Below, in pieces: positions 1 through 19,317 of a stretch of 20,000 nucleotides of DNA. The position numbers and the translations under genes were made by a program. Numbering within the stretch: position 1 is the first letter of the stretch; every line of letters starts with the position of its first letter. The stretch comes from Chiloscyllium plagiosum (Eukaryota): assembly GCF_004010195.1 (NCBI RefSeq), contig NC_057757.1, forward strand, positions 7,383,596 to 7,403,595, read 5' to 3'. The notes under the pieces were generated by a model, which was not told the origin of the DNA, made no database searches, and saw only the letters and a program-made list of their open reading frames with translations.

Positions 1-3000
1 CGGCATTTAGGTGATTATATTTCTCGTGTTTCTCTTGCCATGCTGTTTCCAGTGCTTTACTATCATTCTCGTACCGCACTGTGACATCTACAAACGCGAT
101 CTTCTGGTCTTTTCTAAATATGAGATCGGGCTTCCATAGGGAACCGTTTTTGGCAAATAGCCTGGGCTCCACGTACGATGTCCAGCCATACTTACTGACT
201 TGCTTCTGCAACTGGTCAGCGATCTTGTTATGGCGTTTTATTCGAGCATTTTTCACGAAAGGGCAGCATCCTGAGATGTGTGATATGGTCTCGTTTGCCA
301 TCTCACACCTTCGGCATAGTTTGGTTCGGTTTGGCCTTCCTCTAGATTGTGTGGCTCTTGTCGGGTATAGATTAAACCACGAGAGCATGCTGCTTATGAA
401 TCTAGAGGATTTTTGTTGTACTCCGGCTTTTGTCCAAGAATTAGAGATCTTGTCATCTCTAAAGTACTGGATGCCTTCCCCTTGACATTCCAGCTTTTGC
501 CATTTTTCGAATTCCCACTCCACCCAGCCAGCATACCTCGCGTTTGCCTCCTGGAGTGCAGGCATGATGCCTTGGACGGCGGTCATCGGGTCGATTTTCC
601 CTTCGCCGCTGCTGCAGTTACTGGGTTGGAAATTTTCAATTTCTTTGAGGACCTTGAGCTCGCGCAGTCCCGCAACGGTCTTTGTGTTGCTCTCACCTTT
701 ATATTGAAAGAGGCCCGAATGACCACACCACTGGACATGTCTGGTGCCTCACATTTGTGAACAATCGCGGATGGGATTTGCACCTCCAGTTTTGGGACGC
801 CTGGACCGCCGTTCCTGTTGCTAGCGTATAGCACTCCGTCTGCGATATGAGGTGGTAGGTGTAGGAATTCTTTGGTGGCGTTGCGGATTATTTGGTCCAG
901 CTTTGTGAGAGTAGCCTGTGACGCTTCTGTCAGGATCAGATGGAAGTACAATTGGGGGATGACATGTATCTTTAGGAGCTCCAGCCGTTGTCGTGGTCGG
1001 AGAGGTGCTGCCTGTATTCTTAAGCTTCTCCTCCCAGTCCCCTTCTGCCACACCTGCCCATGGATCGATCCGGGCACCCAGGTATTTCTCTGTGTCACCT
1101 GGGGGTATGTGGGCTATGGCTTCGTCCCGCAGCTTCCAGTTTGCGAAGTGATTGTACGAAAAGGTCTTCCTTTTAAAAGTGAAGTGGAATCCCTTCGTCT
1201 TCGCTGTGTTAATACTGAGGCCTGGATGGTCACAGTATTTCTGGAGCAGCTTCAGTTTCCTAGCCATACCAGTGTGTGAGTCGCTTAGAAGGGCGATGTC
1301 ATCCGCGAAGGCCAAAGTTGACTCTTCTGCCACCCAGGGGCATGGCGACCCCTGAGTTAGCCCTCTCCAGAGAGCACACCAAAGCGATGTTAAATAATAT
1401 TGGTAAGAGTGGGTCGCCCTGCTTTATGCCCCTCTCGATAGTTATTGGGTTAAGTTTCCATTCCCTTCCACCACTATTGTGTTGCCAGTGTATAAGTCTT
1501 CGATGAGACTTACAAAGGCTTTGGGCAGTTTCACTCTTTGCAAAGATTTGATCAATAGCATGTGCCCAACCGAGTCAAACGCTTTTACTAGATCGACAAA
1601 GACAACCGCGAGGCCCTTACGATTGTACTTTGCTCCCTTGATGATGTTTTCGAGGACCACAATGTTTTCATTGCATCCGGGAGTGGCTGCTAGGAATCCC
1701 TTTTGCCTGGGGTTTATCTCGACTGTTTCACTCAGGCGTTTAGCCATTGTTTTCGTGAACAGCCAGAGCAGCATTGGACCGATGGTTATTGGCCGCCAGT
1801 TAGCAATGCTTTTCAAGTGTTCCTTATCCTCGCACTTAGGAATCAGGACCGTTCGACTCTTTTTTAGTGAATCAGGGATCATGCTTGACTTTAGCCATAA
1901 GGAGAAGAGGCGGGTTAGACGGGTTTCCTCCTGCTCATGGAGTGTTCTTATGTCCTGCAGTTTCAGGCCGTCTGGTCCGGCGGCACTGTTCTCGTCTATC
2001 CCCTTGATGGCCGCTTCAAGCTCCTCTACCTCTATGGGTTTCATCAAGGACCCGTCATCGACTTTGCCAGTGTATGGGGCATACTTATTTATGTTTGATT
2101 TCTTATTTGGTGCTGACAGTTTCTCACGGAAACATGACTCCACTTCCTCTCTTGATAGAGGACAAGCAGATGAGGTCGGCGCCCCCATGATCTCGCGAGC
2201 TAGTTGACGCTGGTTGGATTTGTAAAGCTGCTGTGTTGCTCTAAATTGCGCCTTACATGCTGCCCACCATGTTTTGGCTCCGGTATTGCTGCCGGGCCTT
2301 TTGTCTTTCTGGGCCCGATCTTTCTGGGGCCTCTTGTGTTTGCCCTGTCTTTTCCTACTATTCATTAGTAGGTCGGTAATACTCTCCACTAGTCCGATTC
2401 CAAGGGCAAGCGTGTCCAGGTCATTCCTCGCGCTCAAAAGCTCCTCAGCTTGTGTAAGCTGGTCATCTACGTCCCGATGTTTAGGGATCGAAGCCGGTGT
2501 TTTTCGGCTGGCTCTTTGGCGCTGGGCTTGGTCGTCGGAATTTCCCTGGACACTCTCTGCCTCAGAATCGTGCGAGTCTATACCCGTCGTTGGCTCGCTG
2601 ATGTTCTTGACCTCCGTCGGGGTGTTTGCCAGGAGCCTGCGCTTGTCTGAGATTTGCTTTGGTGTTTTGGTTTTCAGGGTGCTAGCGATGGATTTGTTTA
2701 TAAACTTGCATCCTGAAAATCTCACCTCTAATTCCCTCAGGAGTGCCACCTCCTCCCGTGACCATACGCGGTCGCTTCTCCCAGGTTTGCCCTTGACTTT
2801 GGGTGCCGGTTTGAGACGTCTCTCGTTTCGTAGAACCGGGTGTCTGTGCCTCTCGTGTTGACCAAGGCCTGATTGTGTTGGTCACATGCGCTGCATGTAA
2901 AGTCCTCAGTTGGGGGTTGTTTCACTCCTTCGCATTTTGGGTAATGGCAGGCTATTGAGTGGTATTCTCCTGCCTTATTGCAGCGTGAACATCTTGTTCG

Positions 3001-3599
3001 GATGTTCTTTATTCCGTGCACTTTAGGCACATGGGTCTTAAACATGCTCACCGTGGGGAAGAGGGTGTTGCAGTCCTTGCAGAACAGCCCATTGACGGGA
3101 TAGTGGATGATTACCTCCGAGACAGATGTTCTGTCACATACTGGCTCGATAACAACTCCTTCCATGAAGGCAGTTGCATCATCTGTTTCCTCGCCAGTCT
3201 CATTCATAGTCTTTTTTGTGTCTGTGCCCTGCTTTATATCTCGATAACTTTTGTTGTAGAAGGTTTGGGTGGTTATGCTTATCTCAACCACAGGGTGGGC
3301 TGCCCTTACAGTGCCTTCTTCAACGTTATCTTTGTTATTCGTTACAGGGTGAGCCGGCTCCCTGAGAGGGGTGACCAGTCTCAGCTCCATGTAAGGTAGG
3401 AGGTAACGTCTCAAGGTCTGGATGAGATGGACCTTGTTGCAGGTTTTATACATGTACAACCTAATGACTTGTCACAGCTCTCGGTTGTGGACGAGGCTGC
3501 GGGGAGGTTGTTTTTCTGGGACACTTCCCAGCCGGACTGCTCCGTTGAAAATGGAAGACTCATACTGGTTTTTTGAGAGCTGGTCAGTCTAGACCACAT
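1..3599 (-). pseudogene. Disrupted R2 polyprotein ORF (ZF-Myb-RT-CCHC-RLE)
   Basis: Stitched from ORFs 2737..3459, 1442..2749 (frame open upstream to about 2878), about 1320-1450 (IERGIKQGDPLLPILFNIAL), 821..1333, 583..1098, and an unlisted frame from about 700 to 1 (..WQKLECQGEG..LCRRCEMANETISHISGCCPFVKNARIKRHNKI..WKPDLIF..VDVTVRYE..EKHEKY). Frameshifts near 2880, 1450, 1320, 1020 and 700. The start is uncertain: the first ATG after the ribozyme is at 3597-3599 and would need another shift near 3420-3460. Confidence 0.9.
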
Positions 3600-3618
3600 C
3601 CGTCTTGTACTTTTTCTG

Positions 3619-3776
3619 ATCGTTTGGTCACCCAACATCCAGGATTGCTGGGTTTACCGGCGGGGCCAGCGGGGAGGCACGACACACACTATGCGCCAAA
3701 AATACATGAAAACGTCATAGTCGGCAACTATGCCTCCTTGACCAAGGCAAGAAAGAGAGTCATAGTTACTCCCGCC
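3619..3776 (-). ncRNA. HDV-like self-cleaving ribozyme at the R2 5' end
   Basis: Manual fold of the minus strand: P1 GGCGGG(3776-3771)/CCCGCC(3664-3659); P2 GUCGU(3683-3679)/ACGAU(3623-3619); P3 GCC/GGC; L3 UCCCCGCU; P1.1 GG(3658-3657) pairing with CC in L3; P4 ACCCAGCA/UGUUGGGU; J4/2 GACCAA containing the candidate catalytic C. The elements occur in the correct nested double-pseudoknot order. Confidence 0.9.
3753..3776 (-). rRNA. 24-nt 28S rDNA fragment (R2 upstream target sequence, positions -28 to -5); not an rRNA gene
   Basis: The minus strand reads GGCGGGAGTAACTATGACTCTCTT, identical to the conserved 28S sequence preceding the AAGG/TAGC R2 insertion site. No further rDNA similarity is recognisable beyond 3776. 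Confidence 0.93.
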
Positions 3777-5584
3777 AATGATGAGGTTCCAGCTTCCTCC
3801 CTGCTATCTCTCTCTCACTCATCACTGGATATGTTTGATCACACTGCAATAACTTGTGCTCCTCACGCTGCAATATCTATCAATCAGGATCGGGGAGAAG
3901 TGTTGCCTGTGGGTGATGTGTAATTCCATCCCAGTTTTCAAGCTGGTGTCTGGTCATGGCTTTGATGTTGTCTGAACTTTGATACTGTTTTTCAACTGTG
4001 ATGACCTGTCCTAGCTTCCCCATTTGTTACAATTCCAGATTAAAGTTTTCAAGCCATTAAACTCCTGAGTGAGATGAAGTGGCTACTTTTGATTATAGGC
4101 CTCCTCCCTTCAACCTTTGCAAGGAATTTCTTTTGGAATGATCTTTTTCTCCGAGACCCAAAATGACCTGAGGATTTGAAAGGTGCGAATTTTATCAGGA
4201 TTCCTTGAATCAGCAAAAAGATTGAGGTTATTCATTACTAAATTCGAAAATGTATCATGTGATATTGCACATATGCACAGTTTAGAAATATAAAGTAGGT
4301 CTAAGGGCTGTGGTAGATAGCACGTTTTAGGAATGACCACGAGACACAGAGAATACCTCAAGATGATAAGCCTTTAGCTGCAAACAACAGCTATGGCCAT
4401 CACAGCAGATGACCCTGAAAGCCTGTGAACTGTGAGCGTACTCTAATGTTTATGCTCTTCTAAAAACCACACTCCATCCCTGTTACATTAGCATAACCAA
4501 TCGCACTAAGCCTACGTTATATCCCCTTTAAACAATCAGATTCTGCCACAATTGTCTTCTGGATTGCTCCAGACCCTCACGTTGTGCGTGGTCATCTTTA
4601 TTCACCTTTTTTCACCTGACAGGCTGTAGTCACGCAAGACTGAACCAAACATGCAACCCAGATCTTACACTTACGGAACGTCTCAACATGTATTACTTTG
4701 AAGTTATATATTCATATTTACCATTAAAACAAGACACAAGTTATAACTAAGGATAATATAGATATGGTCTGAATGCTCATGAAGGACAGGTAGTTAAATC
4801 TCATGATCCTTGCAATGGAGGTTACCAGCAGAAATGGCATTGGCAGGTGTGCTGTCGATTTTGAGATTCTTGGCTTTGGAAGTTGATTCCAATTCTTTCG
4901 CCCTGTTTCCTTTCACAAGTGGCAGACCGGCAGCACTCAGTGAGCAAAACGTCTTTTCCTGTTTTATAACTTGCAGTGCAGTGGTGTTTAAATCACAGTT
5001 TTCAGAACTGTCACCTTCGCAGTACGCACAAGTACACACACGAATATCTCAGGCCAGTAATATGCACAGAATCGTGCTGCAGCCTGTATTAAAGGCATGT
5101 TATTTTTTAATATTTCTGGAAAACTAAAACACGAAAGTTCACACGAGATGTTTCTTGGTCATATCTCTGCTTTTGTTTTAAGTTTCCCTGAAACACTTTT
5201 GCTGCAATATTCTATTGCCCTCACAAAATATTTTATTGGATAATGACTAAATGTACATGTGCAGCCACTTTTTTGTTTTTCAGTAGATTTCTTTTGAAAA
5301 GTTAACCCATCAACATGACAATGCCCAACACTGACCAAATCACAGGTCTCCATTGTCTCTCCCAAATACACGAAACTTGAGCATCCAAACATTTCTCACT
5401 GAGACTCAGGTCCTCAGACATGGCAACCCTCAAACAAACATCTGTCACCTCTAAACTGTCCATCCTTTGGGCCAGTCCCACAGCTCTTCATTCCCCTGAG
5501 AGAAATTCATAAACAAGGAACAAGAATAGCCTCTCAGCAATTCTAGCTTGATCTGCCATTCCATAAGATCATGGTTGATATTAA

Positions 5585-9524: not shown

Positions 9525-10250
9525 TTCCGGTCCTGGGAGTGTTGTTGAGCAGAAAGACCTCAGGGTTCAGGTACATAGCCCTTTCAAAGTTGTATCACAG
9601 GTAGACAGGGTGGTAAAGAAGGTGTTTAGGAACCTTGTCTTCATGATTCAGACCATCGAGTATCGGAATTGGAATGGCATTTTGGATGTTCGTGAGCCAC
9701 TTTTGAAATACTGTGTGCTGTTCTGGTCACCCTGCTATGGGAAGGAGATTATTAAATTGGGCAAGATGCAGCAAAGGTTTATTTGGACATTACAGGGGCC
9801 ACAGGGTTTGAGCTATAATGAAAGGCTGAATAGGCGTTCACCTTTCCCCCTGGAGAGCAGAAGGGTGCGGGTGGACCCCACAGAGGTCTATGAAAAGTCA
9901 TGAGGGGGGCATAGTTAAGTTAAAGAGCAAAAGTCTTTTTCCCGAGACTGGGAGCGTTCAAACTAAAACGAACAGGTTTGAATTTAGGGAGGAGAGATTT
10001 AAAATTGAATGAGAGGGCAACTTCTTCACACAGAGGGTGGTGCATGTGTGAAATGAACTGCCAAAGAAAGGATGAGGGGCAGATCTAGTCACAACATTTA
10101 AAAGACATTTTGATAGGCACTAGAAATGGAAAGGTTTGGAGAGATGTGGGTCGATGGCAGTTAAATCTGACTAGTTTAGTTTGAGAAATATGGTCAGCAT
10201 AGAGGATTTGGACTGAAGGGTCGATTTCCATACTGTATGACTCTCTGACT
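9525..10250 (+). mobile_element. CR1-type LINE 3' fragment
   Basis: EQKDLRVQVH, PLLKYCVLFWSP, LSYNERL..LESRRVRVD..EVY; ends GGACTGAAGGG..CTGTATGACTCTCTGACT. Confidence 0.88.
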
Positions 10251-17588: not shown

Positions 17589-18592
17589 CTACTGTTTCAC
17601 TTGTGTCTGTTGGGAGTCTGGTGTAGCTATTACATTGAAGGACTGGGAAAAAATAAAAATGGTCCCCATCGCTATGTGCCTCTTAGCTATTTTGCTTCTT
17701 AAGTAACTGAATGATCCAGTAACCGGATATTTCATTGTGCTTTCGAGCTGCTCTCTGAACCTAGACTGTGTGACTGCATAAATGAATGTGTTTGTGCAGC
17801 AACTCATATTCCGCAGCATAAACCCAACTTGTTGAAGTATATATTCAGAATCATTGTAATCTCCGGGATAAGTTGCTGTTATAATATAGTATAAGAAATC
17901 TATGACATTTACTAACCAAAGAACAATGAAGCTGCCGGAAATGGTGAACAGTAAAATGATAGACTTCCTTCTACTCTCTATCTCTGGGTCTCTTTGATTC
18001 TCTGCCTTGCTTTGACCCCTCAGTCCCTTACGGATCCGATTGGTCACTAAAATGTGTCTGATGGTCAAACAGTTGAATAACAAAATCAAAGCGAATGCGA
18101 GAAATGGGGTTAAAATTGTATCAAACCAGTCAAAACCCAGCCACCCAGGGTCTGTATAATAACTTGACTTTGGGTAACAGTCCCAGGGTACATTATTGAT
18201 TATCCATCCAGGTTGAAGGATAAAGTAGAATGGGACATTTTTTAAACAGAGTAAGATGTAGATTGTTGCTAGAACTACAGATGCAGTTTTTCTAGTGCAA
18301 TATTTTCTTTTCAGCTTTTGGCAACAAATGGCTACAAATCTATCAAAGGAGAAAGCGATGGTGAACCAGACAGAATAGTCCGTTGCTGCTCGAAGCAGGA
18401 CATAATTAACACTACACACAGCGGTTAGGTCCAGGAAGGTTCCTGGGAAGTAATAGTAATTGATCCGCCACAGTATGACCTCAGCAATAATGACCAGGAG
18501 ATCTGCCATTGCCATGGCCAGCAGATAGCGAGTGGTGCAGATCGAGAGGCCACATGTTCTCCTGGATAGTATCACAATTGCAATCAAGTTAA
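17589..18592 (-). CDS. Class A (rhodopsin-like) GPCR, GPR139/GPR142-like, exon 2 (end of TM1 to C-terminus); spliced protein 356 aa
   Basis: Acceptor TTTTTCCTTGCAG (AG at 18594-18593) followed by (G)TT AAC. Hydrophobic TM segments, LAMAMADL (TM2), TM3 Cys and ECL2 Cys, FDRFVAIC, TM5 ILTPF, TM7 SCCTNTFIY, helix 8 FREQL. No internal stop. Confidence 0.93.
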
Positions 18593-19317
18593 CTGCAAGG
18601 AAAAATAGGGAAAAGAGACTGAAAATTAATCGATTAAACATTCTGCTGAGCCAGACAGGGGTCCAGCACAAAAGAAATCAGCATGTGCCAAGTTCAGTGT
18701 ATATACCAAAAATAAAAATATGCAAACCTGATCACAGTCCCAGCTCCATCTCACTGACAGTTAGGTTCAATAGAGTCAGGGCATGGAGTAATTGGCAACA
18801 TCTCCCACTGAGGCCGGGTTATGAATTTGAATATCTGAATTGGTTTGATTGTCTCTGATTTAAGTTTTCTTCCATTGAACACAGGGGCTGCTGGCTTTCC
18901 AAGACCTTTGTAAAAGGATCACTGGACAGAGCTGAAGACAGAAGATAAGCCACTCCAGGGTAAAGCTTGCAACCTTGGAAAATCTCTTCACCTCTCCCCC
19001 ATCCATCTATTCCCATGGACTGTCAGATACACTGATACGGAATACACCAATGTAGTGTATGGGACCCCCACAAATTAGACAACTATCCTCCCTCACCCAT
19101 ATAAAAGTCAGATAACGTAGAATCGGACGATGCAAAATAGAGATATATTTTTCCTTGAGACAATTACTTTTAACAATGGGAAGGGAACAATGATGGGCTA
19201 ATTGGGCACCTATAGAGTGGCAAGCATTAAATAAGCGCACATCGACATCAGTCAGAATAATACCAAAGAACAGTTCACAGTCCAATTTAAACAACCTCCA
19301 CAGGTACAGTCACTCAC

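Follow-up and report, generated by a model that had tools for sequence, protein, structure and literature searches.

The window analyzed here, a stretch of 20,000 nucleotides (nt) from the shark Chiloscyllium plagiosum (C48:7383596-7403595), carries a copy of an A-clade R2 element that lies outside the ribosomal DNA (rDNA) and begins with sequence from the 28S rRNA gene, its first base corresponding to position -28 as counted from the point of R2 insertion. Among site-specific retrotransposons R2 serves as the model, and the engineering of A-clade R2 proteins for gene insertion is under way. The element occupies window positions 1-3776 on the minus strand and a further 485 bp to the left of the window, for a total of 4261 bp; of the extent of 1..3800 given in an initial annotation made from the sequence alone, the 5' end, at 3776, was upheld and the other end was not, as the element continues past the left edge. 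The same annotation had proposed that an RNA released by a ribozyme from an R2 copy resident in the rDNA was reverse transcribed to its first nucleotide and integrated off target. The pairing of the ribozyme, the shared start of many dispersed copies, and the 28S tags at their ends now make it likely that the element derives from a ribozyme-processed RNA that was inserted off target and came from a master lineage in the rDNA, itself no longer seen.

The element's 5' end, whose first bases are GGCGGGAGTAACTATGACTCTCTT, opens with a 24-nt leader (3753..3776, minus strand) that is identical at 24 of 24 positions to -28 through -5 of the 28S gene of the same genome and that lacks the AAGG of -4 through -1, both as had been annotated. 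Uninserted 28S copies in the assembly read ...gggtaaacGGCGGGAGTAACTATGACTCTCTTaaggtagccaaatgcc and are divided at the R2 site as ...gggtaaacGGCGGGAGTAACTATGACTCTCTTaagg/tagccaaatgcctcgtcatc. The loss of AAGG is common to three sister copies (on C22, C32, and C93132), which together with the window copy form a group of four. A BLAST comparison of the window with 3 kb surrounding the 28S site returned the 24-nt match (3753-3776, 100% identity) and a single other match with an E value of <0.01, a weak one (67% over 181 nt) between window positions 9972-10151 and the probe's far downstream end. In the 3.56 Gb of assembly searched, 12 exact occurrences of the 24-mer were counted, compared with 0 of its reversed control: five of the 12 are the heads of copies of the window family, three are empty 28S sites, and four are sites holding a different R2 family. 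At its other end the element terminates as ...GAGTGTTCCAAAATAG/cattgtg at C48:7383111, 485 bp left of the window edge, a boundary placed where 20 sister copies stop aligning with the fetched left flank. The sequence that follows, which the initial annotation had singled out for inspection, is not rDNA; the window copy has non-rDNA on both sides and not the ...TTAAGG/TAGCC... context of a canonical 28S insertion.

The junctions in the window are real. Logan contigs of four sequencing runs, among a listing in which no RNA run appeared, were compared with the element together with 500 bp of either flank, and a contig was taken to span a junction if it reached at least 31 letters into the element. 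One 372-nt contig from run X3 crosses the 5' junction with 101 nt inside the element, 271 nt outside, and 2 differences, and a 1338-nt contig from the same run crosses the 3' junction with 33 nt inside. Two further contigs fall below the threshold and are hints only: one from run X1, which belongs to another study, enters the element by 29 nt, and one from organism B, with 9 differences, enters it by 23 nt. Should the organism B contig prove sound, the insertion would be older than the divergence of two species. An empty orthologous site was not found among the contigs of the four runs; the contig from organism C enters the element by just 2 nt.

These data bear on whether the copy is an rDNA orphon, that is, a piece of R2-inserted rDNA displaced by recombination, or an artifact of assembly. 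Fragments of 28S ending near the R2 site are indeed scattered on the chromosomes: a probe of 28S -128 to -1 gave 37 genome matches, many on chromosome-scale contigs, with 77-98% identity and ends between -17 and -1. These matches are dispersed 28S fragments broken at or near the R2 site, and four of them were found joined to other sequence (one to the other R2 family, two to unrelated sequence, and one to a 60-nt R2 3' fragment). The window copy is different in that it carries only 24 nt of 28S upstream and TAGC at most downstream, with no extensive 28S sequence on either side, and in that its start coincides with a ribozyme cut, predicted below, and not with a random break. The 5' junction at 3776/3777 is reached by contigs from runs of two studies (that of X1 only 29 nt inside) and the 3' junction is crossed by one. 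Both of the findings that the initial annotation had named as capable of overturning it, a misassembled junction and flanking 28S on both sides, failed to appear, and the orphon or artifact explanation, the least probable of those considered here, is largely refuted.

The assembly-wide census of copies and 5' starts that the initial annotation had proposed recovered at least 43 matches to the 5' untranslated region (UTR) and at least 42 to the 3' end, on many chromosomes and at 68-94% identity, and at least 10 full-length copies besides that of the window. Among 34 5' ends, 16 lie in the -28 register with unrelated DNA upstream, 9 of them beginning with an exact GGCGGG and 7 with one transition in it (such as GGCAGG or GGTGGG). 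Another 6 start within 3 nt of -28, and 10 are truncated, rearranged, or too decayed. The remaining two consist of one that begins at a near-duplicate of the leader inside the element and one that continues upstream into 28S; apart from this last, none of the ends has a flank related to the others. The junction between 28S and R2 sequence varies between subfamilies, in which AAGG is kept, AAGG is lost, 10 bp are lost, or duplications are present, and in an older "short form" subfamily 28S -12 is joined directly to GTTTTGACGTATTTTTGG. Several junction types of this kind are expected from different rDNA insertions. In the subfamily found on C27, C24, C25, and contig C97677, a near-copy of the leader (GGCGGGAGTAACTCTGAC) stands right after 28S ...TTAAGG, and the copy on contig C97677 begins at this internal near-copy, a start that suggests a second usable cleavage site.

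Additional 28S sequence was retained in two copies. The copy at C13:76042082 has 28S -167 to -12 ahead of a short-form 5' UTR (88.6% identity over 158 nt), which is 139 nt more of upstream 28S than is present in copies starting at -28; it represents either an uncleaved co-transcript or an orphon. The copy at C7:90779326 runs at its 3' side into TAGCCAAATGCCTCA, a 15-nt stretch of 28S beginning at +1. With one copy retaining upstream and another downstream sequence, it appears that the family was co-transcribed with 28S. Short 28S-like tails of varying length occur at the 3' end: a hand tally of 35 distinct 3' junctions, with three identical loci entered as one, showed T following CAAAA in every case, TA in 29, TAG in 19, TAGC in 7, and TAGCC in 2. 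Three loci on different chromosomes (C28:50226447, C17:28867415, and C1:68876090) are letter-identical over 161 nt comprising the R2 3' end and a flanking repeat; they may be a composite repeat with a captured R2 tail or a very recent duplication.

The register shared by the 5' ends is the one at which a ribozyme encoded by the element is predicted to cut. The first 171 nt of the element (3606..3776, minus strand) can be folded, in an alignment of 19 copies, into a self-cleaving ribozyme resembling that of hepatitis delta virus (HDV), with a core spanning element nt 94-158 and reading, in part, GCCTCCCCGCTGGC followed by CCCGCC and GG. P1 is formed by nt 1-6 (GGCGGG, window 3771-3776, minus strand, part of the 28S leader) with nt 113-118, and the hairpin in J1/2 by nt 8-16 with 45-53. 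An outer P2 (nt 71-79 with 162-171) encloses P2 proper (nt 94-98 with 154-158), P3 (nt 99-101 with 110-112, leaving nt 102-109 as L3), P1.1 (nt 103-104 with 119-120), and P4 (nt 124-133 with 138-147); J4/2, GACCAA at nt 148-153, holds the putative catalytic C. The stretch from P3 through L3, P3', and P1' to P1.1 (nt 99-120) reads GCC TCCCCGCT GGC CCCGCC GG. From the complementarity of the CCCGCC of P1' to nt 1-6, the cut is predicted to fall immediately ahead of the first G. The helices P1, P1.1, P2, P3, and P4 occur in the canonical order of a nested double pseudoknot, and the whole comprises 44 pairs in seven helices.

Across the 19-copy alignment 91.5% of 720 cells can pair, compared with 36-51% when the partners are slid by 1-3 columns, and one pair of P4 (alignment columns 141/161) alternates between U-A in 8 rows and C-G in 4. 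Apart from this pair covariation is limited, with a score of 0.141, against 0.125 in shuffled alignments (reached by 6 of 500), in a set of copies that are decaying fossils of one lineage. The fold is therefore proposed on the basis of pairing and of its likeness to published R2 ribozymes, and self-cleavage just 5' of P1 would be consistent with the 16 of 34 genomic 5' ends that lie in register. Cleavage 5' of P1, with P1 beginning most often 28 bp upstream of the R2 site, is reported by Eickbush, Burke and Eickbush (2013, PMC3774820). As in the ribozymes described there as cleaving at -28, P1 here pairs 28S -28 to -22 with R2 sequence located just after P3 and L3, and J1/2 is long and variable. 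The shark ribozymes differ in that J1/2 has 0 to approximately 60 extra nt in the different subfamilies, one of which contains the internal near-copy of the leader, and in that the cleavage site is deduced here from where dispersed genomic copies begin and not from an assay. The dispersed copies record the 5' end of the RNA that is predicted by the fold.

The places into which the copies were inserted also carry information. Fifteen copies lie within the same few bases of the reverse transcriptase (RT)-coding region of another long interspersed nuclear element (LINE), accounting for 11 of 35 3' flanks and 8 of 34 5' flanks. This LINE has at least 2214 first-look candidates, with matches at 94-97% identity, and in its intact copies the hot spot reads GGGGAGTAGAGACAACCCTGGTAATTA/TAGACCAGTGAGCC, within the protein context ...VVPLFKKGSRDNPGNYR/PVSLTSVVGK.... 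The site contains GGGAGTA one base off the 28S register, then a pyrimidine-rich and an A/T-rich stretch, and TAG at +1 to +3; insertions there lack 6-8 bp of the target at the 5' junction. A short-form copy at C5:91327956 (C5:91327746-91328246) abuts the hot spot in what is apparently the opposite orientation, a few bases from the forward insertions. Its 3' end was not found at the expected place, where the fetched stretch held only LINE sequence.

Outside the LINE, at least six of the seven bases of GGGAGTA are found at -35 to -10 in 7 of 22 flanks; shuffled flanks gave a mean of 1.08 (0 of 2000 shuffles reached 7), the reverse complements 0 of 22, and windows farther upstream 5 of 108. In the upstream target flank of the window copy (3777..3804, minus strand; positions -1 to -28), GGGAG stands at 3797-3801, that is, at -25 to -21 and in the same register as in 28S, and is followed by a pyrimidine-rich stretch. 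Compared in register with 28S, 15 of its 28 positions agree, a value reached by 23 of 32,392 control 28-mers from the flank in the window. Similar features are reported for the off-target insertions of the zebra finch element R2Tg in human cells, whose logo shows a 28S match at -19 to -25 and 4-5 nt of 3' homology (PMC12222951). On these grounds the insertion sites of the shark copies look near-cognate.

This pattern also bears on a different origin, in which a processed R2 transcript was inserted in trans by the machinery of another LINE, as happens with processed pseudogenes. The genome would offer opportunity for this, being rich in active-looking LINEs, among them the one that flanks many of the copies with its matches of 94-97%. 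A poly(A) or other LINE-type tail is missing from the copies, however, and their 3' end, CAAAATAG, is like a canonical R2/28S junction; together with the enrichment of GGGAGTA-like motifs upstream and the recurrence within a few bases at one TAG-containing LINE site, this points to target recognition by R2 itself, and we consider insertion in trans highly unlikely.

Each of the 10 full-length copies examined for its reading frame has a broken one. In a maximum-likelihood tree, 17 full-length copies are arranged like a ladder that has short inner branches and end branches of 0.037-0.092, which fall from 0.07-0.09 in the short form to 0.037-0.043 in the group of the window copy (itself 0.043). 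A tree of this shape is what a single master lineage would leave as it evolved and gave off dead copies. We hypothesize that a master R2 copy in a 28S gene was co-transcribed with the rRNA and that its 5' UTR folded together with the 28S bases from -28 into the HDV-like ribozyme, which would have cut just before G(-28) and left a mature RNA beginning with GGCGGGAGTAAC.... The R2 protein would then have nicked a near-cognate site outside the rDNA and primed reverse transcription there; the RNA may have been copied to its very first base and the complementary DNA (cDNA) attached to the upstream DNA in a step that lacked the customary annealing to 28S. The missing AAGG would be a 4-bp junction deletion inherited from the master. 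A copy formed in this way, having no RNA polymerase I promoter upstream, would have been unable from the start to act as a source. The window copy has since decayed by approximately 4%, with at least five frame breaks.

A number of observations weigh against this account. No copy of the window family was found in any intact 28S gene in the assembly: of the seven exact 24-mer sites in 28S, three are empty and four hold the other family, and the only rDNA candidate is a 60-nt R2 3' fragment in 28S on contig C99392, of uncertain family. The absence of the family from assembled 28S genes is weak evidence, given the poor assembly of rDNA and its turnover through recombination. With respect to the ribozyme, changes on both sides of a pair occur in five pairs, no more than in shuffled alignments (331 of 500 reach 5), and searches of Rfam gave no HDV, CPEB3, or drz match, either in the window (E value of ≤1) or in six short-form 5' ends (E value of ≤10). 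The matches that Rfam did return (CRISPR-DR24, Ms_IGR-8, and SNORA73) were chance ones, and the null result is weak evidence in that a long J1/2 and pseudoknots are poorly modeled there. The ribozyme also lies wholly inside the element, so that in principle any read-through transcript of a dispersed copy could undergo processing. As for the insertion sites, the GGGAGTA test was designed after the motif had been seen, the motif itself being set by 28S and the published logo. At -20 the window flank shows G in place of the strongly conserved T. In 19 non-LINE flanks, positions -25 to -19 match 28S in 48 of 133 cells, compared with 37-47 in slid registers, and the in-register match of these flanks to 28S, taken position by position, has no clear peak. 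Local alignment to the 28S target gave a score of 7 for the LINE site (reached by 789 of 2488 control windows) and of 6 for the window flank (reached by 1394 of 4616), neither of which is significant.

Some of these observations would fit a lineage that had left the rDNA, in which the 28 nt derived from 28S have become the element's own 5' end and P1 strand and which has spread from dispersed copies, for example those at the LINE site, much as R2NS elements do. The loss of 28S specificity had been offered as the alternative in the initial annotation. It would account for the lack of family members in intact 28S genes, for the at least 43 and 42 matches at the two ends genome-wide, for a ribozyme that is self-contained, and for the 15 copies at a single site in a LINE with so many candidate copies. 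R2NS elements of planaria and the liver fluke (Kojima et al. 2016, PMC5035012) are likewise R2-clade elements at non-rDNA sites; in that report, their copies are >98% identical to the consensus and have no target preference. The shark copies differ in being old and broken, in bearing 28S tags at both ends, and in occupying 28S-like sites, and even the youngest end branches are still approximately 0.04, where a lineage like R2NS would have young, near-identical copies free of 28S association. A lineage that had left the rDNA is also difficult to reconcile with the 139 nt of extra upstream 28S in one copy and the 15 nt of downstream 28S in another, with the differing length of the 3' 28S tail, with the several 28S/R2 junction types, and with the ladder of dead offshoots. 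In addition, R2 is not known to possess its own promoter (PMC3774820). We consider such an escape unlikely, and less probable as an explanation of the window copy than off-target insertion from an rDNA master.

A related idea is that the LINE served as a second self-renewing niche, since a 28S-like site (GGGAGTA, approximately 20 nt, then TAG) in the RT region of an abundant LINE might have allowed the family to persist outside the rDNA. Such persistence would be possible because the ribozyme, with its 28S-derived P1 strand, travels in every copy and could free RNA from read-through transcripts. We regard this reading as unlikely.

Other R2 families are present in the genome. The second family, the one that also fills the four occupied 24-mer sites, lies at the canonical 28S site, with 28S on both sides, at C26:15863273-15872000 and on contigs C89898 and C100838, and has 40-58% protein identity to the window element. 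The ribozyme core of the second family reads ACC TCCTCGT GGT TCCCCCT GG; its P1' pairs with 28S -28 to -22 only with a C-C mismatch, or pairs perfectly with a G-run at the junction of the C26 locus. A third R2-like 5' region, on contig C13761, consists of 28S -24 to -5, a partial repeat thereof, and then an unrelated UTR, which in runs X1 and X3 is seen again among the loose ends at L067 4669.

The protein encoded by the window element supports its annotation as an A-clade R2. Its translation matches Pfam RVT_1 in two pieces (E values of 1.6e-09 and 3.9e-07), and in phmmer searches the RT and C-terminal pieces match the A-clade R2 proteins of the PDB (R2Tg; 9dou, 9nl2, and 9nl3) with E values of 1.7e-69 to 8e-51 (the best structure matches, 1.7e-69 to 1.6e-61) and silkmoth R2Bm far more weakly (1e-24 to 5e-13; best, 1.3e-24). 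The nearest database proteins are from sharks, at 59% (catshark) and 40% identity, followed by bird R2s at approximately 32%. The N terminus aligns with zinc finger 3 (ZnF3), ZnF2, and the start of ZnF1, including its CxxC, of R2Tg (2872..3087, minus strand; R2Tg 212-303 and 9nl2 3-84), giving the three zinc fingers of the A clade; the H..H half of ZnF1 is found in the next reading frame, the change of frame falling between approximately element nt 896 and 1037. A Myb-like DNA-binding motif, WSREEVALLRELE...KQISDKRR (2626..2764, minus strand), was labeled by reading the translation and not by Pfam, and falls inside the stretch aligned to 9nl2 residues 87-541. The RT domain (1148..1807, minus strand), delimited from Pfam RVT_1, translations, and tblastn frames, has the FADD motif and two compensating frameshifts flanking the QGDPL motif. 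The CCHC zinc knuckle and restriction-like endonuclease region lies at 1..448 on the minus strand (phmmer against A-clade R2 C termini, E value of 4.5e-54), and the end of the open reading frame (ORF) and the 3' UTR run on through the 485 bp to the left. All the parts of an A-clade R2 ORF, from the N-terminal zinc fingers and Myb through the RT and CCHC to the endonuclease, are thus present in a frame that is broken in at least five places (within ZnF1, twice around QGDPL, and twice in the second half), and the window copy is dead.

The remainder of the window is ordinary nuclear DNA, in agreement with the initial annotation, which had reported a G protein-coupled receptor in the 5' flank: apart from the one weak 67% match, it showed no other 28S sequence in the BLAST comparison, and an open frame of 362 amino acids at 17589-18677 on the minus strand, 13.8 kb away, matches 7tm_1 (E value of 3e-20), apparently as a single exon. 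On the other side, a G-rich minisatellite-like stretch of approximately 500 bp (GGGAGTGAGGG... units; L011 6980-7500) adjoins the insertion site to the left of the element's 3' end.

The presence of R2 in sharks was reported in 2026 (PMC13188248). The window family resembles the A-clade R2s described there from Chondrichthyes and R2Tg (PDB 9dou) in having a single ORF with ZnF3-ZnF2-ZnF1, Myb, RT, CCHC, and endonuclease and in having a 3' end that abuts the TAG of 28S. The window copy departs from them in lying outside the rDNA and in being broken, with approximately 30-40% identity to bird R2s and 59% to that of the catshark. The off-target insertions of R2Tg (PMC12222951) share with the shark copies GGGAGTA at approximately -19 to -25, 3' homology beginning with TAG, and upstream sequence that is pyrimidine- and then T/A-rich. 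The shark copies, in contrast, are natural, germ line, and full-length and accumulated over evolutionary time; their signal is the weaker one, with positions that vary by several bases. Occasional copies outside the rDNA are also reported for R1 and R2 of Drosophila (Stage and Eickbush 2009, PMC2718515). Full-length non-rDNA R1 copies of the melanogaster type have 7-28 bp of upstream 28S, taken as a mark of co-transcription, whereas the non-rDNA R2 copies described in the same report are few and often incomplete, and R2 RNA is given there as having no 28S leader. The shark has dozens of R2 copies, many of them full-length and with a fixed start at -28. In the literature searched, supplements excluded, no account was found of dispersed vertebrate R2 copies starting at -28. 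R2 and the R2-type ribozyme are both known, and a 28S leader analogous to the present one is in print for Drosophila non-rDNA R1 (PMC2718515); what appears to be undescribed in the papers that could be searched is a -28 leader running through a whole family of dispersed vertebrate copies, along with the hot spot in the LINE.

The genome of this shark may be regarded as a natural archive of R2 missing its target. Its full-length copies would record the 5' end of the template RNA in vivo, at 28S -28, and would show that the 5' end can be joined without a need for 28S homology, and the places in which they are found would mark genomic sequences that act as near-cognate sites. The agreement with ribozyme biochemistry and with off-target maps obtained in the laboratory confirms current models and does not overturn them. 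A full census of these copies could yield an off-target logo for A-clade R2 on an evolutionary scale.

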